Source of the DNA: Desulfuromonadales bacterium
GTDB lineage: Bacteria > Desulfobacterota > Desulfuromonadia > Desulfuromonadales > JAGXHI01
DNA: 64,000 nt
Assembly (NCBI GenBank): GCA_024636295.1
Contig: JAGXHI010000028.1
Coordinates: forward strand, 21,565-85,564
Reading direction: 5' to 3'
The translations under genes were made by a program, and so were the position numbers. Of the stretch, positions 6,290 to 44,768 are shown piece by piece; positions within the stretch are counted from its first letter, which is position 1, and each line of letters begins with the position of its first letter. Below the pieces are notes generated by a model. It was not told the origin of the DNA. It saw only the letters and a program-made list of their open reading frames with translations, and did no database searches.

Positions 6290-7501
6290 TCAGTCAACCC
6301 CCCGGATAAGCTTTTCCATTAACCTGAATCCGGGCTGGATCCGCACTCCGGTGGCGGCCGCCTCCGGTTCATTGTATCCGGAAACTTTCCCAACCGGCGT
6401 AAATTCACCGGAAGATCCGTAAAGGATGAAGGGGACGGGATCCAGAGTATGGGTCATTTTCTCTACCGGGGTGGGATGATCCGGAAGAACGGCGATGCGG
6501 TAGTCGCCGAGATCGGCAATCCCGTCCAGCACCGTTCTGACAACTTCCCTGTCAAAGGATTCGATCGCCTGGATTTTCTTCTCCAGGCTTCCTTCGTGGG
6601 CCGCCTCATCCGGCGCTTCGACGTGAACATAGACAAAATCCCGGCGCCTTAGAGCATCCAGGGCGTATTCAGCCTTTCCCCGGTAATTGGTGTCGATGTA
6701 CCCGGTCGCCCCGGGGACCTCGATGACGTCCAGACCGGCGTAAATTCCGATTCCCTTGATCAGATCTACCGCGGAAATCACCGCTCCCGAGATTCCGAAC
6801 TTCTGCTTCATGGTCTCCATCCGGGGCGTCCGCCCCTGCCCCCAGAGCCAGATGGAGTTGGCGGGAGCCAGTCCTTGATCCAGCCGGCGTTTATTCACCG
6901 GATGCCTGTGAAGAAGCATCTGGGCGGAGGTGGTCAGCCTCATCAGGTCTTCCGCCCCGTCTCCCTGCGGCAGGTGCCCCTCGATACTTTGTCCCGTCAG
7001 GTCATGAGGGGGTGCGAAACAAAATTGGTCCTTTCCGTTCCTCCAGACCATAAGGTGTCGGTAAGAGACTCCGGGGTGGAATTCAAAGTTTTCGTCTCCC
7101 AGTTCCTCTTGTAGATGTACAAGTAGTTCGCGAGCTTCGGGAGTGGAAATATGGCCAGCCGAAAAATCCGCCATGTACAGCTTTCCCTGGTGCGCCGCGA
7201 GATAAACGAGATTCAACCGGAAGGCGACATCGTTCGGTCCCAGGCTTACACCCATGCTGGCCGCCTCCAGGGGTGAGCGTCCGCTGTAGCATTCATTCGG
7301 ATCATATCCGAACACCGAAAGATTGGCCACATCGCTTCCCGGATGAAAATTCGAGGGCACCGTCTCAGCCATCCCTACCAGTCCCTTACGGGCCAGTTCA
7401 TCCATGTGCGGTGTTCTGGCCGCCTCCAGCGGGGTTTTGCCGTCCAGTTCGCTAAGAGGCTCGTCGGCCATTCCGTCACCAAGCAGAACAATATATTTCA
7501 T
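6290..7501 (-). CDS. apgM: cofactor-independent phosphoglycerate mutase, archaeal ApgM type (family also proposed as alternative homoserine kinase)
   Basis: 403 aa. MKYIVLLGDGMADEP N-terminus and a metalloenzyme-superfamily C-terminus (VHVEAPDEAAHEG, PDHPTP). Confidence 0.8.
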   Translation of the reverse strand: MKYIVLLGDGMADEPLSELDGKTPLEAARTPHMDELARKGLVGMAETVPSNFHPGSDVANLSVFGYDPNECYSGRSPLEAASMGVSLGPNDVAFRLNLVYLAAHQGKLYMADFSAGHISTPEARELLVHLQEELGDENFEFHPGVSYRHLMVWRNGKDQFCFAPPHDLTGQSIEGHLPQGDGAEDLMRLTTSAQMLLHRHPVNKRRLDQGLAPANSIWLWGQGRTPRMETMKQKFGISGAVISAVDLIKGIGIYAGLDVIEVPGATGYIDTNYRGKAEYALDALRRRDFVYVHVEAPDEAAHEGSLEKKIQAIESFDREVVRTVLDGIADLGDYRIAVLPDHPTPVEKMTHTLDPVPFILYGSSGEFTPVGKVSGYNEPEAAATGVRIQPGFRLMEKLIRGVD

Positions 7502-7521
7502 TACTCCTCACATTTGGACGC

Positions 7522-7715
7522 GGTACTAATTAGTTTTCGTCCGGAAACGGCCCTTTTCCGCAATCTCCGCGTCAACCCGCGGATTTGATTGTGCGGCGTA
7601 AAGTACTACGCCTCCGCTCAAATCCTTGATTTCCTTGATCTTGCGAAAAATTACTCGTTTCCAGATCGAAAACCGCATTTGTGCTTCCCGGGGTTTCCGG
7701 ACGGGTACTAATTAT
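7522..7715 (+). ncRNA. structured intergenic element, copy 1 (candidate 6S-like RNA; alternative MITE)
   Basis: The core 7538-7703 aligns with 15935-16100 with 13 substitutions and no indels. Closing helix 7538-7548/7693-7703, extended by 7527-7534/7707-7714. Central hairpin ggatttga(7581-7588)/tcaaatcc(7618-7625). Inner helix 7553-7563/7641-7650. The strand call rests on G:U versus A:C positions. Confidence 0.45.
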
Positions 7716-31438: not shown

Positions 31439-31689
31439 AATCCGCACAAACCAGCTTGCGCACTCCCTTTCTCTGTCCGTTGAACCAAAAAAATTCTTTT
31501 CCTCTTCATGTGAGAGTTTTTTCGCGAGAAGAAACAGGCACTGGCGATACCGGCGCACCATGGAAGGTGTGGAAGAGCGCTCAACCTGGCTCTCTTTCCT
31601 GCAGTGGGGCCATCTTCGGCGATCTATTAGGTGGAGATCCTCATCCAGGATGGTAGACTTTATCCGGCATACCTTTGAACGGGAGACAA

Positions 31690-33015
31690 ATGGATAACGT
31701 TCTCGCCGCACGCGCCCTGATGGGCGTTTCGCTTGGCTTCCATATCATCTACGCCACCATCGGGGTCGGTCTTCCTCTGATGCTCATGATTGCGGAGGGG
31801 ATCGCTCTTCGCACCGGCCAGGAACTGTATCACCAGATGGCGCGCAGATGGATCCGGCCCGCAGCGGTTCTTTTTGCTATCGGCGCCGTCTCGGGCACCA
31901 TTCTTTCTTTCGAGCTTGGCTTTCTGTGGCCCCGGTTCATGGAATTCAGCGGCCCCATGATCGGACTTCCCTTCTGGATGGAGGGATACGCATTCTTTAC
32001 GGAAGCGATATTCCTCGCCCTCTATCTTTATGGGGCCGCACGTCTCTCCCGGAAAGCCCTTTTTCTCTGCACGATTCCCATGGCTGTCGCTGCCGCGGCT
32101 TCGGCTGTTTTCGTCATCAGCGCGAATTCATGGATGAACACCCCCTCCGGGTTCACCCTGGAAGCGGGATCTCTTGCAAACGTCAGCCCCCTGAAAGCCA
32201 TGGCCAATCCCGCCTGGGCGCACCAGGCGGTCCATGGAACGGTTGCCGCCTACGTGGCGACCTGTTTTGCCATGGCGGGAGTATACGCCCTTGCTCTGCT
32301 CCGTGGAAAGGCCTCGGAATATAATCGAAAAGCCCTGACACTCTCCCTGGCAGTGGGGACCATTTTCCTCCCATTCATGCTGATATCCGGAGACTGGGCT
32401 TCCGCCTTTCTGGCCAAACATGAAAAAGCCAAGCTTGCGGCGGCCGAATCACACTTCAAAACCATGTCGGGCGCACCGCTCACAATTGGCGGATGGCCTG
32501 ATCTGGAAGCGGAGCGGGTCCGGTTCGGAATCGAGATCCCTTATGCCTTGAGTCTTCTCGCTCATCGAGATCCGTTTGCCGAAGTGACGGGGCTCGATGC
32601 CTTCCCTCCCGACCAGAGGCCCGACCCCCGTCTCGTTCATCCATTTTTTACCCTGATGGTGGGGGGCTTTTTCATTATGGCTGCCGCCGCAGTCGCCTTT
32701 TGGTGGCGACTTTGGCGTGGAAAGGGTATCCCGGAGACTAAAAATCTCATGCGCTTGATTCTGATCGCTTCTCCCTTCGGGCTTATCGCCCTGGAGAGCG
32801 GGTGGCTGGTCACCGAATTCGGACGGCAGCCCTGGGTTGTTATGGATATTATGAAGGTCTCCGAGGGCGCAACGCCCAATGAAGGCATAGGAATCGTTTT
32901 CTTTATTTTCATGGCAGTTTACGCGGCGCTCACAGCTGGTCTTTTTAAAACGTTGATGCGCCGCGGACCGGAAAGAATCGAGGCAACGCAGGAGGGACGC
33001 CGTGTGGACGATTAG
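31690..33015 (+). CDS. cydA: cytochrome bd-type quinol oxidase subunit I
   Basis: ATG 31690 is preferred (GGGAGA upstream). MDNVLAARALMGVSLGFHIIYA N-terminus. Short Q-loop type, about 441 aa. Confidence 0.9.
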   Translation: MDNVLAARALMGVSLGFHIIYATIGVGLPLMLMIAEGIALRTGQELYHQMARRWIRPAAVLFAIGAVSGTILSFELGFLWPRFMEFSGPMIGLPFWMEGYAFFTEAIFLALYLYGAARLSRKALFLCTIPMAVAAAASAVFVISANSWMNTPSGFTLEAGSLANVSPLKAMANPAWAHQAVHGTVAAYVATCFAMAGVYALALLRGKASEYNRKALTLSLAVGTIFLPFMLISGDWASAFLAKHEKAKLAAAESHFKTMSGAPLTIGGWPDLEAERVRFGIEIPYALSLLAHRDPFAEVTGLDAFPPDQRPDPRLVHPFFTLMVGGFFIMAAAAVAFWWRLWRGKGIPETKNLMRLILIASPFGLIALESGWLVTEFGRQPWVVMDIMKVSEGATPNEGIGIVFFIFMAVYAALTAGLFKTLMRRGPERIEATQEGRRVDD

Positions 33016-34024
33016 CCATATTGCCGCATCCATTCTACTCCTGGGCCTCATCATGTACGCAGCTTTCGGAGGGGCGGATTTTGGCGGAGGCATCTGGACC
33101 GCCCTGGCTTCCGGTCCCCGAAAACGGGAACAAAGGGAAAGTCTTTTTCAGGCAATCGGTCCGGTCTGGGAAACCAATCATGTCTGGCTGATTTTTGTAG
33201 TGGTCGTTCTTTTCATGGTCTTTCCCCGAGCTTTCTCGACTCTTTTTATAGCCCTGTTGGTCCCTTTGGTCATTGCGCTGATCGGCATCAATTTTCGGGG
33301 TGCAGCCTTCGCCTTCCGTCATTTTGGAGAGGAAGATGGCGGGGGCGTTCCCCTGATCGCACGTACTTTTGAAATTTCCAGTATCTTGACCCCATTTGCC
33401 ATGGGAATGGCGGTAACTGCTGTTGCTCAGGGAAAAATTCAGATCGTGGATGGCAAGGTCCTTTTCGGCCTATGGAGCTGGATCACCCCTTTCACACTGA
33501 TGGGCGGCCTCATAGGACTGGCGATCTGTGCGTATCTGGCGCCCATTTACATGACAGTACGCACGAAAGGGGAACTTCAGGAAGATTTCCGGAAACGGGG
33601 AATGACCGCCGGATGGGCGCTTGGAATTCTGACGGCCCTCGAGGTCCCGATCGCCTTTTTCGATGCACCCGTTTTCGCCGATCGATTCCTTCTGCCGCGA
33701 ACATTGATCTGCATTGCCCTGGCGATCGGGTTCGGGGTTCTGACGGAAGTCCTTCTCTGGAGAAAACGGTACATGGGGGCGCAGATTGCCGCCGGCGGGA
33801 CAATCGCCTTGACCTTTGCCGGATTCGGAGCCGCCCTCTATCCGGACCTCATCCTGGATCAACTCACAATTGCAGAGGCTGCAGCTCCCCGGGAAACCAT
33901 CCTTGCCTTTTTCACAGTCCTTCCTTTCGGCATAGCCGTTTTGGCGCCATCTCTGTTTTTCCTGTACTGGACCTTTCGAGGCCCGCCGGATCCGGAAATC
34001 CCTCCCGATGACCTCAAGACCTGA
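33002..34024 (+). CDS. cydB: cytochrome bd-type quinol oxidase subunit II
   Basis: 340 aa. GTG start overlapping the cydA end. GGADFGGGIW motif. Confidence 0.9.
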   Translation: MWTISHIAASILLLGLIMYAAFGGADFGGGIWTALASGPRKREQRESLFQAIGPVWETNHVWLIFVVVVLFMVFPRAFSTLFIALLVPLVIALIGINFRGAAFAFRHFGEEDGGGVPLIARTFEISSILTPFAMGMAVTAVAQGKIQIVDGKVLFGLWSWITPFTLMGGLIGLAICAYLAPIYMTVRTKGELQEDFRKRGMTAGWALGILTALEVPIAFFDAPVFADRFLLPRTLICIALAIGFGVLTEVLLWRKRYMGAQIAAGGTIALTFAGFGAALYPDLILDQLTIAEAAAPRETILAFFTVLPFGIAVLAPSLFFLYWTFRGPPDPEIPPDDLKT

Positions 34025-34845: not shown

Positions 34846-35593
34846 TGCGAGATAATGATGAACTTAAATCTTTAGTCCTTCAGAAGTACCAGAAAGCGGC
34901 AGAACCGCGGAAGAACTATTCAATTTTCCGACGGGGACGGGCGGAACAAGAGCTCTGGGCTACAATCCTTACATGATCAAGGCAGCTCCCGAAGATATGA
35001 TGAAGAGTTACTGCGGAGTGGGCAATCCCTTCACCCTGAGAAATGTGATTCCCGACACCGACCTTCTGGATGTGGGGTGCGGTTCGGGCTTCGACCTTTT
35101 CTGTGCCAGCCATGCCGTTGGCCCTCTGGGAAAAGTCTTTGGAATAGACTTATCTCCGGCCATGGTGGCAAAGGCCGAAAGGGGATTGGCGAAAACGGGG
35201 CGGCAAAATGCCGAGGTGAAAGTCGCAGATGCCGAAAACCTGCCCTTCGAAGAAGGAAAATTCGATACGGTCATCTCAAACGGAACCCTTAATCTGATTC
35301 CCGATAAGGAGCGTGCTGTATCAGAAATTTATCGTGTTCTCGCTCCCGGCGGTTATTTTTTATGTGCCGATATGGTCCGCAGGGAGGATGCGCCTCCAGT
35401 TGATGGTGAAAGGCGCGACTGGGACCAATGAATCGGAGGTGCCGTCCCGGTCGGGGATGTGATAAAAATGCTTAAAAAAGTTGGCTTCGGTGAGGTTGAA
35501 TACAGGGGGACCAGCGGTTTCGTCTCTTCTCAGATGACGGAAAGTGCCTTGTTCAGAGCCCGGAAACCCGAGGTCGGGATTAAAATGAAGTAG
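34846..35593 (+). CDS. ArsM/UbiE-like class I SAM-dependent methyltransferase; candidate selenoprotein (in-frame UGA 35429-35431) with apparent 1-nt frameshift near 34917-34921
   Basis: ORF 34973-35431 (GVGNPF, LDVGCGSGFD, ISNGTLNL). It continues in the same frame after the TGA for 53 codons (IGGAVPVGDVIKMLKKVGFGEV...ALFRARKP). The TGA sits where homologs have the Cys of the W..C(I/V).GA motif. The N-terminal MRDNDELKSLVLQKYQKAAE is in another frame. Confidence 0.6.
35442..35460 (+). promoter_or_regulatory. SECIS-like hairpin downstream of UGA
   Basis: Stem CGUCCC(35443-35448)/GGGAUG(35454-35459) with apical loop GGUCG, starting 12 nt after the UGA. The GGUC loop resembles the E. coli fdhF SECIS apical loop. 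Confidence 0.5.
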
Positions 35594-35607
35594 ATGATGT
35601 GATGCGA

Positions 35608-35681
35608 ACAAAAAAAGCCCCGAAAGCAGGAGGGAAAAAACTTTCAGGGCTAAAGAGGAAGCTAGCTTCCTTGCTAGTGTT
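35608..35681 (-). ncRNA. sRNA candidate A (or 3' terminator module) with CCCUCCU loop
   Basis: Minus strand: TTGACA (35717-35712), 18-nt spacer, TATAGT (35693-35688). Then hairpin AGGAAG-CUAG-CUUCCU. Then an 11-bp terminator stem with loop UUUUUUCCCUCCUG followed by U7. Confidence 0.45.
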
Positions 35682-36170
35682 GACTTAACTATAACCTTCC
35701 CAGTCTTCTTTTGTCAACCCCTTCCCGCTTTAAAAATCCACACCTGCGAAATGATCAACTTCTCCAGCGATGGCGCCGATTCCTGTTTCTGAGATCCTGA
35801 TTTTTCCGGCGGGAATTTCGTCGTTGTATTTTCTTATGGCAAATGGTAAGGTATAAAACATTGTTTGTTAAGTCTGTTGGTTTTGATTTTTTTCGAACTC
35901 TCTCGATATTGAACACCAAACCATTTTCAGGCTCGAATTCTTTATGCACATATTTCCCCTCGGCATTAATGCAACCCCCATTTCGGGAAACGATTTTTTA
36001 TTGATCCGGGGATTTTCATTTTCCCCGCTGGAAGATTGCCACCCGTTCCTGCGATTCGTCTCTGGGGTGGCTGACTCCGGCAAGACACGGGACACAACAC
36101 CGACCGCTTGATTCCCATATCCATTCGGCTGTCGGAACCCGAATCCCCATTCCAACACTTCGAGGATGTG

Positions 36171-36785
36171 ATGAAAAGAATAATCATTCTGCTGAAACTG
36201 AGTGTTTTGGGAATCGTATCGGCCGGGTTACTGGGGTTATTGACCGTATCGTCGGAAGCCGCCCGGGAAAAGTACTTTGATCGTTCGGGCAGGCTCATCG
36301 TCATTGATAAACCTGCAGCCGACCTCCTACGTACCTACGACACCAAGAATCGACCCCCGGAAAAGTCCTTTCCCGTCCCCCCTCCCCCCTTTACGGAAGG
36401 AATCTTCCCCTGCTCGGACTGCCACGAAGGCATGGAGCCGAATCTGCAGCGCAGAACACTGGAAGACATGCACACCGATATCCTGCTGAATCATGCCGAG
36501 GGACAGCGCTGGTGCCTGGATTGCCACAATCCCGAAGACAGGGACACACTCCGTCTGGTTTCCGGCGAAGTGATTCCTTTTTCCGAATCCTACCGCCTGT
36601 GCGGCCAGTGTCATGGCGATAAATACCGGGACTGGCGCAAAGGAATACATGGAAAGCGTACGGGGTTCTGGAACGGGGACAAGGAATATCTTCTGTGCGC
36701 TCACTGCCACAATCCGCATGACCCGCGATTCAAACCGATTCACCCCATGCCGCCGCCAGAACGCCCGGCGAGAGGACCGCATTAA
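36171..36785 (+). CDS. membrane-anchored tetraheme cytochrome c (module 1)
   Basis: Start at MKRIIILLKLSVLG (GAGGA upstream). Four CxxCH motifs (CSDCH, CLDCH, CGQCH, CAHCH). Confidence 0.85.
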   Translation: MKRIIILLKLSVLGIVSAGLLGLLTVSSEAAREKYFDRSGRLIVIDKPAADLLRTYDTKNRPPEKSFPVPPPPFTEGIFPCSDCHEGMEPNLQRRTLEDMHTDILLNHAEGQRWCLDCHNPEDRDTLRLVSGEVIPFSESYRLCGQCHGDKYRDWRKGIHGKRTGFWNGDKEYLLCAHCHNPHDPRFKPIHPMPPPERPARGPH

Positions 36786-36819
36786 ATACCGTCAACCATC
36801 TGCTGTGGGAGATCGACAG

Positions 36820-37746
36820 ATGTCGGAAAAGAAAAAGTGCGACCCCCGAGTTTTTCAACTGTCCCGCCGCAAAGCCCTGAAGGGGCTAGCGGCCGGAGTC
36901 GGCGTCCTGGCCATCCCCTCTCCAAAAGCTTCAGCGTCGGTCTGGGAATCTTTTTTCCAGAAACATTTCAAAGAGCTCAGCAAAGAAGACCTGCCGAAGG
37001 TGCTTGCGCGAATGGAAGAGCAATACAGCCGGGAATATGGCAGGCCGGTGACAGTAAAGGCGACTCCTCATATCGAAGGGGTCAAATTCGGCTATGGCCT
37101 TGATCTTTCTCGCTGCGTCGGCTGCCGCCGTTGCGTATATGCCTGCGTCTCGGAAAACAATCAGTCTCGCGAGCCCCAGATACATTGGATTCGCGTTGTT
37201 CGGCTGAACAAGGAAAAGGGGATCGACCTCAGTGAAGCCGAGCATTATTACAATCCCAGGGAAGTCCCGGAAAAAGGGCACTTTTACCTGCCCGTCCAGT
37301 GTCAGCAGTGCGAGAACGCTCCCTGCACAAAGGTCTGCCCGGTTCAGGCCACATGGCGGGAAAACGACGGCATCATCGTTGTCGACTACAACTGGTGCAT
37401 CGGATGCCGATACTGCATGGCCGCATGTCCCTACGGCGCGCGCCATTTCAACTGGCGAAAAAGCCGGATTCCAACCGATGAGTTGAATCCGGATACCCAC
37501 TATCTCGGCAACCGGCCCCGCCCGGTAGGAGTCGTCGAGAAATGCACCTTCTGCATTCAAAAAACCCGGGAGATGCCGGGGCGATATCCGGCCTGCGAAG
37601 AAATCTGTCCTGTCGGAGCCCGCAAGTTCGGCAATCTTCTCGACCCCGAGAGCGAAATTCGATACCTGATCGAAAATAAACGTGTTTTCCTTCTCAAAGA
37701 AGACCTGAACACTCAGCCCAAGTTCTTCTATTTCTACGGGTCCTAA
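36820..37746 (+). CDS. periplasmic 4Fe-4S cluster protein, NrfC/HybA/DsrO-like, Tat signal (module 1)
   Basis: Start at MSEKKK...SRRKALKGLAAGVGVLAI (twin-arginine). Four Cys clusters (CVGCRRCVYAC, CQQCENAPC, CIGCRYCMAACP, CTFC...CEEICP). Confidence 0.85.
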   Translation: MSEKKKCDPRVFQLSRRKALKGLAAGVGVLAIPSPKASASVWESFFQKHFKELSKEDLPKVLARMEEQYSREYGRPVTVKATPHIEGVKFGYGLDLSRCVGCRRCVYACVSENNQSREPQIHWIRVVRLNKEKGIDLSEAEHYYNPREVPEKGHFYLPVQCQQCENAPCTKVCPVQATWRENDGIIVVDYNWCIGCRYCMAACPYGARHFNWRKSRIPTDELNPDTHYLGNRPRPVGVVEKCTFCIQKTREMPGRYPACEEICPVGARKFGNLLDPESEIRYLIENKRVFLLKEDLNTQPKFFYFYGS

Positions 37747-37779
37747 TCGGTTACGGGATCTAACCGGCGGAGCGAAATC

Positions 37780-39108
37780 ATGAAGGAAATCTGGCATTTT
37801 TACAAAGGGACGTTCGTCCTGGTCGGCAAGGGGAGCAAAGCTTATTACATCTGGGTGGGGGCTCTTCTGGTGCTGATGGCAATCGGCGCGGCCGCGTATG
37901 TACAGCAACTGAACCAGGGCCTCGCCCTCACAGCCATGACCGATCAGGTCTCCTGGGGGTTCTATATCTCCAATTTCACTTTTCTGGTCGGAGTTGCCGC
38001 CGCGGCGGTCCTGTTGGTCATTCCCGCATACGTTTATCACTGGAAGCCGATCAAGGAAATCGCCGTTCTCGGCGAGCTGCTAGCCATCTCCGCCATTGTC
38101 ATGTGCCTTCTTTTCGTAACAGTCGATATCGGCCGACCCGATCGCTTCTGGCACCTTATTCCCGGCATTGGAATTCTGAATTTCCCCAGTTCGCTTCTGG
38201 CGTGGGATGTTATCGTTCTGAATGGTTATCTCATTCTCAATCTGGTGATCGCCGTATATATCCTCTATAACATGTACTACCGCCGCGAACCCAACAAGAG
38301 TTTCACCACTCCTCTTCTCCTGCTCTCCATTCCCGCGGCAATCTCTATCCACACGGTCACTGCTTTTCTCTACAATGGACTGGGCGCCCGCCCTTTCTGG
38401 AATGCTTCGATTCTGGCGCCACGCTTTCTTGCTTCGGCCTTCTGTTCAGGCCCTGCGTTCATGATTCTGGTTTTCCTTCTGATTCGTCGATATACCCGCT
38501 TCAACATAAAAGACGAAGCCATCCACAAGATTGCCGAACTGATCGCTTACGCAATGTTCATAAACCTTTTCCTCCTTGGCGCTGAAATTTTCAAAGAATA
38601 TTACACCGACACTCTCCACCTCGCGCCGATGAAATACCTGTTCCAGGGCCTTCACGGCCATTCGGCCCTTGTTCCCTGGATCTGGACGGCCCTGCTGTTC
38701 AATATCTCGGCCTTTCTTATCTTCCTTGTGCCCGAGACCCGCAAAAACCACGTTACTCTTGTGCTCGGCTGCATTCTGATTTTCATCGGCGTCTATATTG
38801 AAAAAGGAATGGGACTGATCATTCCCGGTTTCGTACCGGACGTGCTGCATGAAATTTATGAATATTCCCCCACGGGAATCGAACTCCTTGTGACCGCTGG
38901 GATATGGGCGACCGGGTTTTTCGTTTTCACCATGCTCCTGCGGGTAGCCATTCCAATTCTCAACGGAGATTTCCACGTGTCAGATGATGGGGTTGGATAC
39001 TATATCGGAGACCAACTTTTTTTCATACCGAGTCGGAAAAGGGGAGCACAGGGACAGGGAAGACTGGGTACTGCCAGGGACTCGGCTGCTCCCGAAGTGA
39101 ACAACTGA
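37780..39108 (+). CDS. NrfD/PsrC-like integral membrane quinone-interacting subunit (module 1)
   Basis: 442 aa polytopic membrane protein. The N-terminal region resembles NrfD-family subunits of the HmcC/DsrP/ActC type. Confidence 0.8.
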   Translation: MKEIWHFYKGTFVLVGKGSKAYYIWVGALLVLMAIGAAAYVQQLNQGLALTAMTDQVSWGFYISNFTFLVGVAAAAVLLVIPAYVYHWKPIKEIAVLGELLAISAIVMCLLFVTVDIGRPDRFWHLIPGIGILNFPSSLLAWDVIVLNGYLILNLVIAVYILYNMYYRREPNKSFTTPLLLLSIPAAISIHTVTAFLYNGLGARPFWNASILAPRFLASAFCSGPAFMILVFLLIRRYTRFNIKDEAIHKIAELIAYAMFINLFLLGAEIFKEYYTDTLHLAPMKYLFQGLHGHSALVPWIWTALLFNISAFLIFLVPETRKNHVTLVLGCILIFIGVYIEKGMGLIIPGFVPDVLHEIYEYSPTGIELLVTAGIWATGFFVFTMLLRVAIPILNGDFHVSDDGVGYYIGDQLFFIPSRKRGAQGQGRLGTARDSAAPEVNN

Positions 39109-39134
39109 AAAAGAAAAGGAGCATTCTCCCTCCG

Positions 39135-39160
39135 CTCCGCCAAAAGATCTTTTGGCGGAG
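39135..39160 (+). terminator. stem-loop terminator after module 1
   Basis: Perfect 26-nt palindrome ctccgccaaaagatcttttggcggag, followed by caatttctt. Confidence 0.6.
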
Positions 39161-39408
39161 CAATTTCTTAAAGACAGTGAGGCTGACGACATGCGCAATA
39201 TAGCCGTTCGCAAACCGCACGCGAAAAGCCGAGGGTTGAAGCGTTCATAAGGAAATCTCCGAAGAGCCCAAAAACCTGCCTCAATCCATTTACAGGTAAA
39301 GCTGAACTCAATATTTCACCCGTCGGATGGAATTGACGATGTTTTATTTATTTCTTTATAAAAACACTTGAATTTAAAATTTTTATCCCCTCAAATCCAT
39401 GATACTTA

Positions 39409-39437
39409 TTGACAAATAAGGAATAAACTCCTATTTT
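39409..39437 (+). promoter_or_regulatory. sigma70-type promoter candidate for module 2
   Basis: TTGACA 39409-39414, 17-nt spacer, TATTTT 39432-39437, within a strongly AT-rich stretch. Confidence 0.45.
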
Positions 39438-39533
39438 AAAATCCCATATCACACCTGACCGCCGAGATTTTTGCGGCGCCTTTTTTTGTCAGGACCTCAT
39501 CTGTCTCATCATTTTACAAAGGGGAAAAAAGCA

Positions 39534-40022
39534 GTGAAGAATCACGTTTGGAGACCCCTCATCGTGGTCATAGGAATTGTTCTCGCTATTCTTGTTTTCC
39601 GACTCTTTTACGTCCCGAACGATTTCGAATCAGGGGAAAGAGGCTTCATGTACAGTTATTATCGCCAGTCCAACGAGTTGGAGTGGGAAAACCAGCCTAT
39701 CAAATACCTGGACACCGGAAAGCAGCACATGCATGAATTCTGCATCGAGTGCCATAGCCACGAAGTCGAAATCCGGACGGAGGATCTGCATGGCGTCATT
39801 GCCTGTGAAAACTGCCATGGACCTGCCCTCGACCATCCGATACATCCGGAAAAGTTGGAAATAGATCGCAGCCGCGAAGTCTGTCTCCGATGTCATACTC
39901 TTCTCACCTATACCACCAGCGAACGAAAACGGATTCCCGGCATTGACCCAAAGGAGCATATGACGGAATATGAATGCGTCGAATGCCACAACCCGCACAA
40001 TCCGAGACTGGAGGACATGTAA
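39534..40022 (+). CDS. membrane-anchored tetraheme cytochrome c (module 2)
   Basis: GTG 39534 is preferred (AAGGGG upstream). One TM segment (RPLIVVIGIVLAILVF). Four CxxCH motifs (CIECH, CENCH, CLRCH, CVECH). Confidence 0.85.
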   Translation: MKNHVWRPLIVVIGIVLAILVFRLFYVPNDFESGERGFMYSYYRQSNELEWENQPIKYLDTGKQHMHEFCIECHSHEVEIRTEDLHGVIACENCHGPALDHPIHPEKLEIDRSREVCLRCHTLLTYTTSERKRIPGIDPKEHMTEYECVECHNPHNPRLEDM

Positions 40023-40795
40023 TGAAGAGGCGAGATTTTCTGAAAAAGTCCATTCTTGTCATTGCCGGCGCCTCGGTCCCCCTGTCGGCTCTCCAGATGG
40101 TCGACCCGAAAAAGGTGCTGGCGGAGAACTTAGATATCCATTGGGCGTTCCTTATCGATACTTTCAAATGCGTTGGCTGCGGTTTCTGCGTTAAGGCCTG
40201 CAAGACGGAAAATAACATTCCTTTTGAGGCAAACGTCACCCGGACCTGGGTGGAACGATACGTCTATACCAAAGATGACCGCCGGTATATCGACAGCCCG
40301 AAGGGCGCCCTCTACGGTTATACCGATCCGCGCATCGATATGGGAATGGGGGAATACAAGGAGATCGACCCGGACAATGTCGGAAAAGCATTTTTCGTTC
40401 CCAAACTCTGTAATCACTGCATAACCCCGCCCTGCACCCAGGTCTGCCCGGTCGGGGCCACATATAAAGCGGACAATGGAGTCGTTCTGGTCGACCGCTC
40501 CTGGTGCATCGGCTGCGGCTACTGCATCATGGCGTGCCCCTACGGCGCCCGCTTCTTTCATCCGACTCTGCATGTGGCCGACAAATGCACTTTCTGCTAC
40601 CACAGGATTACCAAAGGGATGGACACGGCCTGCGTCAACGCCTGCCCTTTTGGCGCGCGAAAAATGTGCAACATCAGGGACATTGATGATCCGATCACCA
40701 AGATCATCATGAATCAGCGGGTGGGGGTCCTCAAAGACGAATTCGGCACCAAGCCCCAGGCTTTCTACATCGGTCTTGCCCAGGAGGTACGTTGA
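40022..40795 (+). CDS. periplasmic 4Fe-4S cluster protein, NrfC/HybA/DsrO-like, Tat signal (module 2)
   Basis: MKRRDFLKKSILVIAGASV Tat signal. Four Cys clusters (CVGCGFCVKAC, CNHCITPPC, CIGCGYCIMACP, CTFC...CVNACP). Overlaps the cytochrome stop (TAATG). Confidence 0.9.
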   Translation: MKRRDFLKKSILVIAGASVPLSALQMVDPKKVLAENLDIHWAFLIDTFKCVGCGFCVKACKTENNIPFEANVTRTWVERYVYTKDDRRYIDSPKGALYGYTDPRIDMGMGEYKEIDPDNVGKAFFVPKLCNHCITPPCTQVCPVGATYKADNGVVLVDRSWCIGCGYCIMACPYGARFFHPTLHVADKCTFCYHRITKGMDTACVNACPFGARKMCNIRDIDDPITKIIMNQRVGVLKDEFGTKPQAFYIGLAQEVR

Positions 40796-40797
40796 TC

Positions 40798-42153
40798 ATG
40801 ATTGAACAAGTTGCCCAGCACGCAATGCAGGTTCATGGCGAAGCCTGGACGGTTAAGGAGCTTTTCGTTCTCCCCAATGAATATATTTATTGGTCGATCC
40901 AGATCGTCATGTATCCTTTCATGACGGGACTTGTGGCCGGGGCCTTTGTACTCTCGTCGCTCTATCATGTTTTTGGAGTGAAGAAGCTCAAGGAAATCGC
41001 AAGATTTTCTCTCGTGTTCTCTTTCGCCCTCCTTCCGGTGGCCATGATGCCGTTGCTGCTGCATCTTCAGCAACCCTTACGGGGGATAAACGTCCTTATG
41101 ACGCCGCACTTCACATCGGCCATTTCCGCTTTCGGCATTGTCTTTCTGACCTACTCCTTCATCGTCGCCAGCGAACTCTGGTTCGAATACCGCAAGCATT
41201 TCGTCCTGACCTACAGCAGACTGGAAGTCCGCCTTGATCTCGGTTTTTTTGATAATCTCAGGCGCCTGTTTTTCAAGACGCTTACCCTCGGCGCCTTTGA
41301 CATCAGCGAAGAAGCGCAGGAAAAGGACCACAAAGCCGTCAAGGTCCTTGCATCCATCGGAATTCCGATCGCTTGCTTTCTCCATGGCTATGCCGGTTTT
41401 ATTTTCGGCTCCGTCAAGGCGAACGCTCTCTGGATGACTCCACTGATGCCCGTCATCTTTATCTGCTCCGCCGTGGTCTCCGGTATCGCTCTGTGCATAC
41501 TGACTTATGTCCTTACACAGGAAATCCGCAAATTCATGGCGCGACGGCGTATAGCCCGGTGGGCCAAAGATACCGGCGCACCAAGTTTCGAAGAATTACG
41601 GGGAGCCGAAGAGCAGGAAGTCAGGACGGTGTCCAATTACCTGCTCTATTTCATGATTGCTGCAATCACCCTCGAAATCCTCGACCTGATTTTCCGCGGC
41701 TACACCCAGGTCAAGTCATGGGATATTCTTCGCGAAGTGATCATGGAAAGAGATTTCTTCAAAATCTTTATCCTTCAATACACCATCGGCAATGCCTTGC
41801 CTTTTCTTATGATGATCTGGCCGAACCGCTCGGTTCGCCGGGTTACCGCAGCCTCGGTTCTCATTCTTTTCGGGGTTTTCATGATGCGATGGAACGTGGT
41901 CATCGGCGGTCAGGCATTCTCGCTCAGCTTCGCCGGGTTCATGCACTATCACATGCCGATCATTCCCCACAATTGGGAAACATTCAAAGAAGGATTTTTC
42001 GGAGCACTGACGGTAATGATCACTCCCTTCGTTATCTTCTATTTCCTGAATAAAATATTCCCGGCATTCCTCAAAGATGATGAAAGTGTTGAAGAGTTTG
42101 AAGGGGTAAATGGAAAATCGGCTCCAGAATTTTCAGCAACCCGGCCGTACTGA
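40798..42153 (+). CDS. NrfD/PsrC-like integral membrane subunit (module 2)
   Basis: The ORF opens at 40792 (TTG). ATG 40798 is preferred (AGGAGG 10 nt upstream). About 451 aa polytopic membrane protein of the NrfD family. Confidence 0.85.
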   Translation: MIEQVAQHAMQVHGEAWTVKELFVLPNEYIYWSIQIVMYPFMTGLVAGAFVLSSLYHVFGVKKLKEIARFSLVFSFALLPVAMMPLLLHLQQPLRGINVLMTPHFTSAISAFGIVFLTYSFIVASELWFEYRKHFVLTYSRLEVRLDLGFFDNLRRLFFKTLTLGAFDISEEAQEKDHKAVKVLASIGIPIACFLHGYAGFIFGSVKANALWMTPLMPVIFICSAVVSGIALCILTYVLTQEIRKFMARRRIARWAKDTGAPSFEELRGAEEQEVRTVSNYLLYFMIAAITLEILDLIFRGYTQVKSWDILREVIMERDFFKIFILQYTIGNALPFLMMIWPNRSVRRVTAASVLILFGVFMMRWNVVIGGQAFSLSFAGFMHYHMPIIPHNWETFKEGFFGALTVMITPFVIFYFLNKIFPAFLKDDESVEEFEGVNGKSAPEFSATRPY

Positions 42154-42198
42154 TCCTGAGACGGGTTCCCGGCCAGCCGAATAAAACGGAGGGGCGTT

Positions 42199-44034
42199 AT
42201 GCCGGAACAGAAGCACTCTCTTGAAAAAAGGGTCGATCAGCTTGCTCAACAAGTAGAAATCCTCAGCCGCAGGGTGGATGAACTGACCACCCACCGTGAA
42301 CGAGCGGGGCCGCTTTACGCCATCTCACCCGGAACACAGGGGGAGAAAAAAAATCTCGAAGCCACGGAGGAACTTCTGTCCTGGGTGGGAAAATCCTCCC
42401 TGCTGCAGCGTCTGGCGACCCTCTGTTTTCTCCTGGTCCTGGCATTGGCCCTCCGTACCGCCACCGACAGTGAAGCCCTCGATTACAGCCTGGGAACCTT
42501 CATCGGGATGGGGTACGCTTCACTCCTCATGGTTATCGGCTGGCACAAATACGGCCTCTCCAGCCCTCTTGCTTCTGTCTTCACCGTTTGCGGCGCGCTT
42601 CTCATGTTTGCCGTGGTGGGAGAAACCCACGCCCATTTCGAATCCCTTCCAGCCATCCCTGCCTATGTCCTTCTGTTGCTTACCGGCATTGCACTTGCGG
42701 CAGCCAGCCGGCATCGGGATGTCGCTCTACCGATCATGGTCGGAACTCTGGGAATGTCTGTTACTGCCATATCCATTGGTTTTCCCAATCCTATATTCTC
42801 TTATCTGATGTTCATTCTTCTGACGGCCAACGTCCTCGGCTATTCCGCCACAAAGCTGAGGCGCTGTTCATGGCTTCGCTGGATTCTTCTGCTCATCATT
42901 ATAGCTATGTACCAGGTCTGGGCCATAAAACTGGGCTTTTCCCATCGGACTTCCGTGGACCCGGGGTGGCGTCTTTCCGCGAGCCTTTTCTTTCCCGCCG
43001 GCATTTTCCTGACCGTCGCCTTCTCGGGAATGGCACTTGTCGGAATGGTACGCAACGAGAAATTATCGAAATTCGATCTTGCCCTTCCTGCCGTCAGCGC
43101 TATCTGCCTTTTTTATTCCGCCCGGTATCTCCTGGCGATTCGAGAGAGCGGATCTGAACTTCTGGGAACGGCAGGCATTCTGGTGGCGCTGGTTCACCTG
43201 GGCATCGCCTCCTGGCTTGCTCGCCGTGAGCCTGAAAAGAAACTCGCAAGGGCAGCGTTTACACTGTCATCGATCCTGCTTCTGATTTTCGCCCTGCCAG
43301 CCGCTTTCAAAGGCCTCCTGCCCTCCCTCCCGGTCCTTTCCGTTCTGGCCCTCGCGCTGGCTTTTCTCTCCCATCAATGGGAAAGCCCAAGAATACGGGT
43401 TCTAGCGTATGCCCTTCAGGCGTTTGTCGGCATGTCCCTTTTTGTGCTGCTTCGGGGCAACGGACCGGAGACCTCCTCTCTTTTCAGCGCTGCCTCGGCG
43501 GGAGCGGTCGCCTTGATCGCCCTCCTCAATTACCGCTGGTGCCGTCTGCACCCGCCTTCCATGGATTCAATTATTTTCAACCGCTTCGACACGAAAGACC
43601 GCATTCCGGTCATCATCCTCCTGACGGCGCTGACCGGTGGCTTTTTTCTCCTCAGAGCCGCCCTTTACCATATTTTCGTCCCGTTGCCCGGAGATATCAA
43701 CGACACCTACCGCTGCGCTCAATCTATCATGATCAACGCATCAGCGGCTGGCCTGATGTTATTCGCTTACATCCGTCACAATCGCGAGATTCGGAATGTC
43801 GCCGTGCTGGTGACCGTGATCGGAGGGATAAAGGTTCTTCTGTACGATCTTTTCGGCACCAGCGGATTGCCGCTCGTATTCAGCGTCTTTTCCTTCGGGG
43901 TGATCGCCGCTCTCGAATCGGCCCTTCTGGGACGATGGCAGCACGGTCTGCCGGAAAACGACAAGAAAACAGATTTGGAATCTTCTTCCGAGAAGGCCGA
44001 AAACACATCCCTGACCCCTGTCAAGCCGGATTGA
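42199..44034 (+). CDS. large polytopic membrane protein, DUF2339-like
   Basis: 611 aa. N-terminal coiled-coil-like EKRVDQLAQQVEILSRRVDELT followed by many TM helices. Family assignment is from memory of DUF2339 architecture. Confidence 0.6.
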   Translation: MPEQKHSLEKRVDQLAQQVEILSRRVDELTTHRERAGPLYAISPGTQGEKKNLEATEELLSWVGKSSLLQRLATLCFLLVLALALRTATDSEALDYSLGTFIGMGYASLLMVIGWHKYGLSSPLASVFTVCGALLMFAVVGETHAHFESLPAIPAYVLLLLTGIALAAASRHRDVALPIMVGTLGMSVTAISIGFPNPIFSYLMFILLTANVLGYSATKLRRCSWLRWILLLIIIAMYQVWAIKLGFSHRTSVDPGWRLSASLFFPAGIFLTVAFSGMALVGMVRNEKLSKFDLALPAVSAICLFYSARYLLAIRESGSELLGTAGILVALVHLGIASWLARREPEKKLARAAFTLSSILLLIFALPAAFKGLLPSLPVLSVLALALAFLSHQWESPRIRVLAYALQAFVGMSLFVLLRGNGPETSSLFSAASAGAVALIALLNYRWCRLHPPSMDSIIFNRFDTKDRIPVIILLTALTGGFFLLRAALYHIFVPLPGDINDTYRCAQSIMINASAAGLMLFAYIRHNREIRNVAVLVTVIGGIKVLLYDLFGTSGLPLVFSVFSFGVIAALESALLGRWQHGLPENDKKTDLESSSEKAENTSLTPVKPD

Positions 44035-44283
44035 CCCACGACCGCATCACCTGTGCCGAAAAAGAAGCTTTCGGGCCCTTTCCTCTGATGGGGCGGACCC
44101 TTCTTTTTACGCGCTTGAACTCCAAAGGCATCTCCTTTATATTTTTCATCATCAACTCTTTTTGGTTTTTGCCATGAACGTTGTCCGCCTCCCTGGCAGT
44201 CTGATGAAAAACCGAACCAAGAAAGAACTTGCCGTCTTTGCCGGGAGGTTGATTGCTCCGACCGCGGAAAAGGGAGTCCGTTC

Positions 44284-44607
44284 ATGAGGGCCGAAGGTAA
44301 TATTTTTCGGGACATTCCATTCAGCCCTGCCGAGGAAGAAACCCTCTCCATTCTTTCGACCAGGAATCTGCGGATCGAGCGCATTGTTTCAACGGGCCAG
44401 GCATCGGCCGAGGGATTCTGGTATGAGCAAAAGGAGAATGAATGGATTGTGGTATTGAGGGGGCGCGGAGTTATCGAATACGAGGATGGATCCTTGACCG
44501 AGTTGGGAGAAGGAGACTGGTTGCATATTCCAGCCCGACTCCGGCATCGTGTCAAAGAAACCTCTTCCGATAGACCGACCGTCTGGCTGGCAGTATTTCA
44601 CCGGTAA
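44284..44607 (+). CDS. cupin domain protein
   Basis: 107 aa. Cupin barrel (EWIVVLRGRGVIEYEDGS...GDWLHIPARLRHRV). Confidence 0.7.
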   Translation: MRAEGNIFRDIPFSPAEEETLSILSTRNLRIERIVSTGQASAEGFWYEQKENEWIVVLRGRGVIEYEDGSLTELGEGDWLHIPARLRHRVKETSSDRPTVWLAVFHR

Positions 44608-44768
44608 TTTTTGATGGCGTCGCAAAAAGTCCGCCCTACGGCGTTACGGCGTTTTTTCAGGACCTCGACATACCTGATGTATGCCTTCGCCCCTGAAAAA
44701 CCATCAGGCCTTGTAGGACGAAATTTTTGCTTAGCCATCCTCTGAGTTTTTGCGAAGGCATCATTTTT
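44608..44768. repeat. ~160-bp inverted-repeat element (MITE-like or structured RNA)
   Basis: Terminal inverted repeats gatggcgtcgcaaaaa (left) and tttttgcgaaggcatc (right) match 14/16. Internal pairings: ttttcagg/cctgaaaa, cctgatg/catcagg, and atgccttcgc(44681-90)/gcgaaggcat(44751-60). Confidence 0.45.

Follow-up and report, generated by a model that had tools for sequence, protein, structure and literature searches.

Cbc4 and a DsrOP-type trio, two distinct candidate menaquinol:cytochrome c oxidoreductases encoded side by side in a Desulfuromonadales bacterium

A contig of a Desulfuromonadales bacterium (JAGXHI010000028.1, NCBI GenBank assembly GCA_024636295.1) carries two consecutive gene trios, referred to here as module 1 and module 2, within the stretch of 64,000 nucleotides that we analysed as a whole and call the window. 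All six genes lie on the + strand, and each trio encodes an anchored tetrahaem cytochrome c, an iron-sulfur (FeS) protein exported by the twin-arginine translocation (Tat) system and a membrane subunit of the NrfD family. We consider it likely that these trios are two distinct, periplasm-facing respiratory modules devoid of a catalytic subunit, module 2 being Cbc4 and module 1 being of the DsrOP type, and that they most likely function as reversible menaquinol:cytochrome c oxidoreductases.

The gene models were built from open reading frame (ORF) calls, Pfam and NCBIfam profile scans, motif searches and a simple hydropathy scan. A first-pass annotation of this DNA had already placed both trios, and all six genes were confirmed by ORFs, Pfam matches and motifs, with small corrections to the starts. 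The spacing between genes within each module is 0–34 nt. Four of the six proteins, as well as a DUF2339 protein encoded next to module 2, have letter-for-letter matches in public gene calls (on one 186-kb contig), and a fifth, the NrfD subunit of module 2, occurs in the same calls with its start nine codons further down. The novelty implied by the first-pass annotation was overstated because both families had already been named, as Cbc4 and as DsrOhPh-tetrahaem; the new element is a comparative one, namely the conserved pairing of the two modules. The related loci used for comparison throughout were obtained from a scan of species-representative genomes that yielded 377 relatives of the module 2 NrfD subunit, of which the best 80 were kept; G. 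sulfurreducens and G. metallireducens are not among these 80.

Module 2 and the Geobacter Cbc4 complex

The first gene of module 2 (39534–40022, +) encodes a 162-amino acid (aa) anchored tetrahaem cytochrome, the CbcS orthologue, in which the haem motifs are CIECH, CENCH, CLRCH and CVECH and the transmembrane (TM) helix comprises residues 9–27; its Pfam matches are to multihaem families. The second gene (40022–40795, +) encodes the FeS subunit FeS2, a PsrB/TtrB-like protein of 257 aa and the orthologue of CbcT, which possesses a Tat signal with the twin-arginine motif MKRRDFLK and four Cys motifs for [4Fe-4S] clusters. The top match of FeS2 in the PDB is PsrB (2vpw_B, 3e-41), and it shares 84% identity with its orthologue in a metagenome-assembled genome (MAG) of Geobacter. 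The third gene (40798–42153, +) encodes the NrfD subunit NrfD2, the CbcU orthologue, with a length of 451 aa, or 442 aa if the annotated start (40825) is used (PF03916, E=2.5e-36). A sequence search of solved structures returned no relative of NrfD2. A Foldseek search with its AlphaFold model (pLDDT 73, pTM 0.74) gave TM-scores of 0.58–0.61 for ActC of alternative complex III (ACIII) and of approximately 0.5–0.6 for ActC/ActF overall, PsrC being weaker.

Module 2 is, on the strength of sequence identity and gene order, an orthologue of Geobacter Cbc4 (CbcSTU), the comparison having been made with the locus of Geotalea daltonii and with a CbcS register derived from primers. A search seeded with the Geoanaerobacter orthologue led to a protein of G. 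daltonii FRC-32 annotated as 'menaquinol oxidoreductase complex Cbc4, cytochrome b subunit, putative'. NrfD2 is 70% identical to this membrane subunit over 420 aa, at full length, and the resemblance to Cbc4 that the first-pass annotation had offered from recall is thereby borne out. The G. daltonii locus (L085) contains cbcS (157 aa), cbcT (261 aa) and cbcU (417 aa) in the same order as the 162-, 257- and 451-aa products of module 2, whose genes overlap or abut. The published cloning primers for cbcS of G. sulfurreducens encode D30FGVHE and R59TKAYC64; because the CbcS register could be deduced from these primers, it was recognized as common to the module-2-type cytochromes of related loci, which have DFG(V/I/A)HE at residue 30 and the first haem Cys at position 64. 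The primer-derived cbcS DNA itself gave 0 matches in two metagenome contig scans.

Cbc4 is composed of the anchored tetrahaem cytochrome CbcS, the subunit CbcT with four [4Fe-4S] clusters and the membrane subunit CbcU, and CbcS is laid out as a TM anchor (residues 1–29), a linker and a cytochrome domain with four CxxCH motifs (10.1101/2025.04.14.648717; PMC13591261). The CbcS protein of G. sulfurreducens has four low-spin haems with an Eapp of -139 mV, and it reduces PpcA in vitro (10.1101/2025.04.14.648717). G. metallireducens has been annotated with two CbcSTU clusters, Gmet_3518-3520 and CbcSTU-2 (Gmet_0325-0327), both of which are up-regulated during direct interspecies electron transfer (DIET), and the latter directly adjoins the nar operon (PMC10989804, PMC2700814). 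Module 2 is like Cbc4 in its trio of genes, their order and similar sizes, the anchor-linker-tetrahaem layout of the cytochrome and the motif register. The surroundings differ, however, in that the window and its nearest relatives have a second, non-orthologous trio before these genes and a DUF2339 gene after them, whereas the cbcSTU genes of G. daltonii have neither.

The DUF2339 gene (42199–44034, +) lies 45 nt 3' of module 2 and encodes a polytopic membrane protein of 611 aa (PF10101, E=1e-10) with approximately 16–18 hydrophobic segments in the hydropathy scan. Homologues flank Cbc4-type loci, on the downstream side or upstream in divergent orientation, in about 30 of the 80 related loci, including L003, L005, L010, L047-L051, L061 and L068, and no homologue was detected next to the module in any Nitrospirota locus. 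The DUF2339 protein may be an accessory component of Cbc4.

A different kind of neighbor was observed in two loci. In G. daltonii (L085, 5908-7434, -), cbcS has a divergently transcribed neighbor that encodes a NapC/NirT-family multihaem cytochrome resembling ImcH in size and domain. A gene of this kind is also present in Geobacter MAG L003 (3810-5357, -), on the strand opposite to module 1 and about 1 kb upstream of it; a small cytochrome gene separates the two. These two proteins span 508–515 aa, and no such gene lies near the modules in the window.

Module 1 and the DsrO/DsrP family

Module 1 begins with a gene (36171–36785, +) for a membrane-anchored tetrahaem cytochrome c of 204 aa, a CbcS-like paralogue that has a single N-terminal TM helix (residues 4–22), the haem motifs CSDCH, CLDCH, CGQCH and CAHCH, and seven additional His residues as possible distal ligands; its Pfam matches are Paired_CXXCH_1 (1e-9) and Cytochrome_C7 (5e-7). 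The next gene (36820–37746, +) encodes the Tat-exported, DsrO/QrcC/ActB-like FeS subunit FeS1, of 308 aa, for which the start was corrected from 36817 to the ATG at 36820. FeS1 contains the twin-arginine motif LSRRKALK and 16 Cys residues in four [4Fe-4S] cluster motifs. Its top NCBIfam match is DsrO at 171.9 bits, under the cut-off of 200, and its nearest PDB structure is the C-terminal FeS domain of ActB of ACIII; the Pfam domain Fer4_11 was detected in the FeS proteins of the two modules with values of 2e-15 and 5e-23. The third gene (37780–39108, +) encodes the DsrP-type NrfD subunit NrfD1, of 442 aa (PF03916, E=5e-42). Against PF03916, which has a gathering score of 25.8, NrfD1 scored 145 bits and NrfD2 126 bits. 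NrfD1 also passed the NCBIfam DsrP equivalog model NF045798, with 438.5 bits and a cut-off of 350, and its nearest solved structure is ActC of ACIII (PDB 6f0k_C, E=1e-12).

Judged by these profile scores and by its gene content, module 1 is a DsrO/DsrP-type pair with a CbcS-like tetrahaem cytochrome in the place of DsrJ and without DsrMK, which gives a more exact form to the resemblance to DsrJOP proposed in the first-pass annotation. Alignment of NrfD1 with ActC places Asp116, Ser138, Asp143 and Lys342 at the positions of His139, Ser164, Asp169 and Arg395 of ActC, respectively. The same four residues match the DsrP1 signature of Asp106, Ser124, Asp129 and Lys329 (Calisto and Pereira, PMC8076601). 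They are invariant in the orthologues of NrfD1, those of Nitrospirota included, and Ser138, Asp143 and Lys342 are nearly invariant among 45 representatives of the family. The cytochrome has four CxxCH motifs, is not trihaem, and showed no match to the DsrJ model at E<0.01. Neither dsrM nor dsrK is located beside module 1, the neighbors of which are a gene for an ArsM-like methyltransferase, cydAB and Cbc4, and neither is adjacent in the annotated related loci. A tetrahaem cytochrome, and not dsrJ, accompanies the DsrOP-type pair in all 46 of the 46 related loci in which the two modules are adjacent.

A cluster of this description has appeared in two papers of 2026, where homologues of DsrO and DsrP together with a bis-His tetrahaem cytochrome, located apart from dsrMK, were named 'DsrOhPh-tetrahaem' or DsrOhPhCyt, with function unknown (PMC13047784). 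It was reported in cable bacteria and in organisms without sulfur metabolism, has also been referred to as a 'candidate alternative complex III', and was proposed to deliver quinol electrons to periplasmic cytochromes (PMC13047784). Module 1 likewise unites homologues of DsrO and DsrP with a tetrahaem cytochrome c at a locus separate from dsrMK, and Dsr metabolism is absent from the organism group to which it belongs. Two differences were noted: the name used in the paper puts the cytochrome after dsrOhPh (an order given by the name only), whereas the cytochrome gene comes first in module 1; and the module 1 cytochrome has its own TM anchor, with no separate TMH1 gene. Compared with DsrMKJOP, module 1 has in common an NrfD subunit above the DsrP cut-off, a DsrP1-type Asp/Ser/Asp quinone site with its Lys gate and a periplasmic four-cluster FeS subunit, but it is without DsrM and DsrK, its DsrO is below the cut-off, and a CbcS-like tetrahaem cytochrome substitutes for the trihaem DsrJ with its His/Cys haem.

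In a neighbor-joining tree of 45 representatives at 50% identity, nearly all of them nameless and with no cable-bacterial or canonical references labelled, NrfD1 groups with three unnamed sequences, and this group is apart from the clade containing an Archaeoglobales 'menaquinol oxidoreductase'. The DsrP model was matched by all 45 representatives. A systematic annotation problem exists here, in that the Prokaryotic Genome Annotation Pipeline (PGAP) gives the name 'DsrP' to the module 1 subunit of organisms that are not sulfate reducers. As a separate observation, NrfD1 has a C-terminal tail past its last TM helix (residues 395–414, window 38962–39021), with the pattern NGDFHV.DDG.G..IGDQ.F, that is conserved in Desulfuromonadota; the Nitrospirota orthologues end in ...TGKLRF without the tail, and the family-wide alignment has no consensus in this region.

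Relation between the modules and proposed function

Between the two modules, the cytochromes are 39% identical (over 85 aa), the FeS proteins 43% and the NrfD subunits 23.5%. Each of the six proteins shares 69–84% identity with its orthologue in the Geobacter MAG, the NrfD subunits being among the most conserved at about 80%. Tandem duplication of a whole module was judged unlikely, given NrfD paralogues with so low an identity although their orthologues are so well conserved. What fits better is an origin from two old FeS/NrfD lineages, module 1 having acquired a CbcS-like cytochrome, because FeS2 is PsrB/TtrB-like and FeS1 is DsrO/QrcC/ActB-like, so that only the cytochromes would be closer paralogues. 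The first-pass description of the modules as clearly diverged holds: their NrfD subunits belong to different lineages and the modules are not recent duplicates. FeS1 is longer than FeS2 by 51 aa (given earlier as roughly 50), of which approximately 49 aa lie between the FeS1 signal peptide and the first Cys motif.

In a profile-profile alignment of NrfD2, the quinone-site and gate positions are occupied by the invariant residues His89, Ser107 and Arg364. Since a protonatable residue in the second TM helix, TMH2 (Asp116 in NrfD1, His89 in NrfD2), a conserved Ser and a mid-membrane Lys or Arg are retained in both NrfD subunits across two phyla, both subunits probably bind quinone. A division of roles like that of ActC and ActF, with one quinone-inactive NrfD, was considered and rejected, as both subunits keep the Ser and the protonatable residue.

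The likeness to the core of ACIII or Qrc that had been suggested for both trios can be traced to the NrfD subunits, which resemble ActC by sequence in the case of NrfD1 and by predicted fold in the case of NrfD2; ActC is the nearest solved structure for both, and the C-terminal domain of ActB is nearest to FeS1. The combination of a periplasmic FeS protein, a multihaem cytochrome and an NrfD subunit follows the same logic in ACIII, in Qrc and in the modules. Unlike ACIII and Qrc, the modules have no molybdopterin-like domain or subunit, no second NrfD per module and no penta- or hexahaem subunit, and their FeS proteins consist of ferredoxin domains only, with 257–308 aa as compared with approximately 1000 aa. 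The scores against the QrcC model (160, cut-off 400) and the QrcD model (49, cut-off 570) were both far below the cut-offs.

We infer the electron path, its direction and its proton coupling, the cytochromes and FeS proteins being assigned to the periplasm by sequence. The NrfD subunit of each module, which would be free of cofactors, may bind menaquinone or menaquinol close to the membrane's periplasmic side, and electrons would pass from the quinol to the four [4Fe-4S] clusters of the Tat-exported subunit and on to the four haems of the anchored cytochrome, or in the reverse order. The haems of the anchored cytochrome are probably all bis-His, and for electron exchange this protein would have soluble, PpcA-type multihaem cytochromes of the periplasm as partners, with possible coupling to protons through the NrfD subunit. 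In DsrP, a redox-active site for quinol has been described that supplies DsrO and DsrJ (10.64898/2026.08.25.746951). The first-pass annotation had proposed that such a unit could connect the quinone pool with periplasmic cytochromes, and this is the role that has been put forward for Cbc4 and for DsrOhPh-tetrahaem (10.1101/2025.04.14.648717; PMC13047784). Operating potential, direction or proton coupling would probably set the two modules apart; whether the quinone site has Asp or His is without predictive value for direction, since both types are found in quinol oxidases and in quinone reductases.

Genomic pairing, alternative readings and neighboring genes

Homologues of NrfD1 and NrfD2 with 76–89% identity are present in genomes and MAGs of Desulfuromonadales and Geobacteraceae, including Malonomonas, Geobacter argillaceus and the bacterium's closest named relatives, Desulfuromonas sp. 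TF and Geoalkalibacter. Among the related loci, a complete Cbc4 was found in 77, and nine of these had flanks too short to judge, leaving 68 informative loci. The two modules are adjacent in 46 of the 68, in Desulfuromonadota as well as Nitrospirota, and in three arrangements: module 1 precedes module 2 in 37 loci, module 2 precedes module 1 in eight (Nitrospirota-type MAGs and one labelled Chloroflexota), and the modules are divergent in one (Dissulfurispiraceae). In the remaining 22 loci Cbc4 has no adjacent module 1, at least 4.5 kb having been examined on both sides. This adjacency hints at a functional link between the modules.

The flanks of the paired modules in Nitrospirota MAGs bear on how the adjacency is to be read. 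In these MAGs the pair, with module 2 first, is preceded by a gene for a NapC/NirT-like multihaem cytochrome of approximately 335 aa, and past the pair the other strand encodes a Rieske protein together with a cytochrome b and a cytochrome c of the multihaem kind (the flanking genes are at 6634-7638 and 13785-16139 in L067, at 5777-6787 in L077 and at 13482-15824 in L080). Taken with the pair, these genes form a cluster of several quinol:cytochrome c modules, and the adjacency may be part of a broader respiratory gene island.

The spacer between module 1 and module 2 in the window is 425 bp long and AT-rich; where module 1 precedes module 2 in related loci, the spacer ranges from about 40 to 740 bp, save for one estimate of -4 bp. 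The palindrome reported there in the first-pass annotation is indeed perfect, but its length is 28 nt and not 26 (39134–39161, +). It begins 26 nt past the stop codon of module 1 and would form a terminator-like hairpin with a 12-bp stem (-21.5 kcal/mol, z=-5.4 versus shuffles), followed by a weak T-tract (AATTTCTTAA). Hairpins are present in the orthologous spacers, but the hairpin of the window is not conserved in them. The AT-rich promoter region that had been proposed between the modules contains a sigma-70-like promoter candidate for module 2, TTGACA-17-TATTTT (39409–39437, +), which agrees with the consensus at 10 of 12 positions and is a consensus match only. A sigma-54 promoter motif was sought upstream of both modules with no match, and an Rfam scan of 35300-44700 gave no riboswitch or small RNA above threshold. 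Separate transcription of the two modules is plausible in the window, and it is likewise plausible that related loci have independent promoters in some cases but not in general. On the other side of module 1, in the 740-bp gap at its 5' end, a minus-strand sigma-70-like site (TTGACA-18-TATAGT, 11 of 12 positions) is located within 35610-35717, and directly downstream of this site the Rfam atoC RNA motif is matched weakly (25.8 bits, gathering score 50, E=0.4).

The pairing could also be taken to mean that the two modules are obligate partners, either in a single supercomplex with two NrfD subunits or in an electrogenic quinone loop that conserves energy or drives reverse electron flow; in the loop, one trio would reduce menaquinone from low-potential periplasmic cytochromes and the other would re-oxidize menaquinol to higher-potential cytochromes. 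We regard this as unlikely. The adjacency in two-thirds of the informative loci and in three arrangements speaks for it, but it has to be set against the 22 loci, among them G. daltonii, Geomonas oryzae and 13 Nitrospirota MAGs, in which Cbc4 occurs without module 1 within 4.5–9 kb. The divergence between phyla is similar for both modules (61–70% identity), consistent with co-inheritance, yet an intergenic gap separates them, with a strong hairpin in the spacer of the window. ActC/ActF in ACIII is a precedent for quinone modules that occur in pairs, but the quinone-site residues are kept in both NrfD subunits here, unlike in ActF. The Qrc-DsrMKJOP loop is another precedent (10.64898/2026.08.25.746951). 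The NapC/NirT and Rieske/cytochrome b genes near the Nitrospirota pairs suggest a general respiratory gene island and not a specific pair. Should this doubtful case prove true, a two-module machine made of a DsrP-type trio and Cbc4 would constitute an electrogenic loop or a reverse-electron-transport device for extracellular or interspecies electron transfer.

In the ORFs called over most of the 64-kb window, Pfam scans revealed neither a molybdopterin enzyme nor a hydrogenase nor any other catalytic subunit of the periplasm, in agreement with the first-pass statement that no catalytic partner is adjacent; the ORFs otherwise represent housekeeping genes, cydAB, moaC/moaB, Mla, Ku and polysaccharide genes. 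No reductase or dehydrogenase was found near the related loci with annotated flanks, where cytochromes and a Rieske/cytochrome b complex are located nearby. It is very unlikely, in our view, that one or both trios serve a periplasmic terminal reductase or oxidase encoded elsewhere as its quinol-dehydrogenase arm in the membrane. Membrane arms of this kind are NrfCD for NrfAB, MccCD for MccA and SirCD for SirA, and the pairing of FeS and NrfD subunits in the modules is homologous to NrfCD, TtrBC and PsrBC; however, each trio has a dedicated anchored cytochrome, and CbcS exchanges electrons with PpcA. The position of CbcSTU-2 beside the nar operon in G. metallireducens would suit such an arm, but no catalytic gene adjoins the trios in the window or in the annotated related loci. 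We give almost no credence to module 1 as the genuine DsrJOP of a dissimilatory sulfite-reduction or -oxidation system with dsrMK and dsrAB outside the window, since the passing DsrP score of NrfD1 and the PGAP name 'DsrP' for its orthologue in Desulfuromonas sp. TF are opposed by a four-CxxCH cytochrome with no DsrJ match, an FeS1 score under the DsrO cut-off, the absence of adjacent dsrM and dsrK here and in annotated relatives, the tetrahaem cytochrome in every adjacent locus, and the occurrence of the same architecture in organisms without sulfur metabolism (PMC13047784).

Several points weigh against our preferred reading of two menaquinol:cytochrome c oxidoreductases without catalytic subunits. 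The search for catalytic genes covers the 64-kb window, and a partner enzyme may be encoded elsewhere in the genome. The proposed orthology of module 2 to GSU0068-0070 proceeds through the G. daltonii locus and the primer-derived register, while that of module 1 to the DsrOhPh-tetrahaem cluster is drawn from architecture and a hidden Markov model score only, and FeS1 is under the DsrO cut-off (172 versus 200). In addition, the Cbc4 literature reports that deletion of cbcS in G. sulfurreducens is without an Fe(III) or Mn(IV) phenotype and describes the physiological role of Cbc4 as unknown (10.1101/2025.04.14.648717; PMC13591261). The modules may back each other up or cooperate, and this might bear on the null result of the single cbcS deletion if G. 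sulfurreducens has a counterpart of module 1. Cbc3, Cbc4 and Cbc6 are quinone-pool gateways of Geobacter-type extracellular electron transfer without an assigned role, and the adjacency of Cbc4 to a DsrOP-type trio provides a testable lead.

With regard to the other genes upstream of module 1, the cytochrome bd quinol oxidase genes cydA and cydB (31675–34024, +) are situated 2 kb upstream, with moaC, a moaB-like gene and a gene for a cupin ahead of them, and they place another quinol-oxidizing enzyme in the neighborhood of module 1. Between cydAB and module 1 lies an ORF for an S-adenosylmethionine-dependent methyltransferase (34973–35593, +). A link of this upstream 'UbiE-like' methyltransferase to quinone biosynthesis was considered and rejected, the protein matching ArsM-type selenoprotein models. 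The ORF contains an in-frame TGA at 35429-35431, past which the homology continues in the same frame (...RRDWDQ*IGGAVPVGDVIKMLKKVGF...). When the sequence was read through with Cys at the TGA, the NCBIfam matches spanning the stop were ArsM_AhpD_UU (211 bits), MTase_UXPK_star (206 bits) and ArsM_DUF2284_UU (201 bits). A hairpin after the UGA was not significant (z=-0.3). The gene probably encodes a selenocysteine-containing ArsM-like enzyme, and the first 50 or so residues of the family are apparently encoded in another frame upstream.

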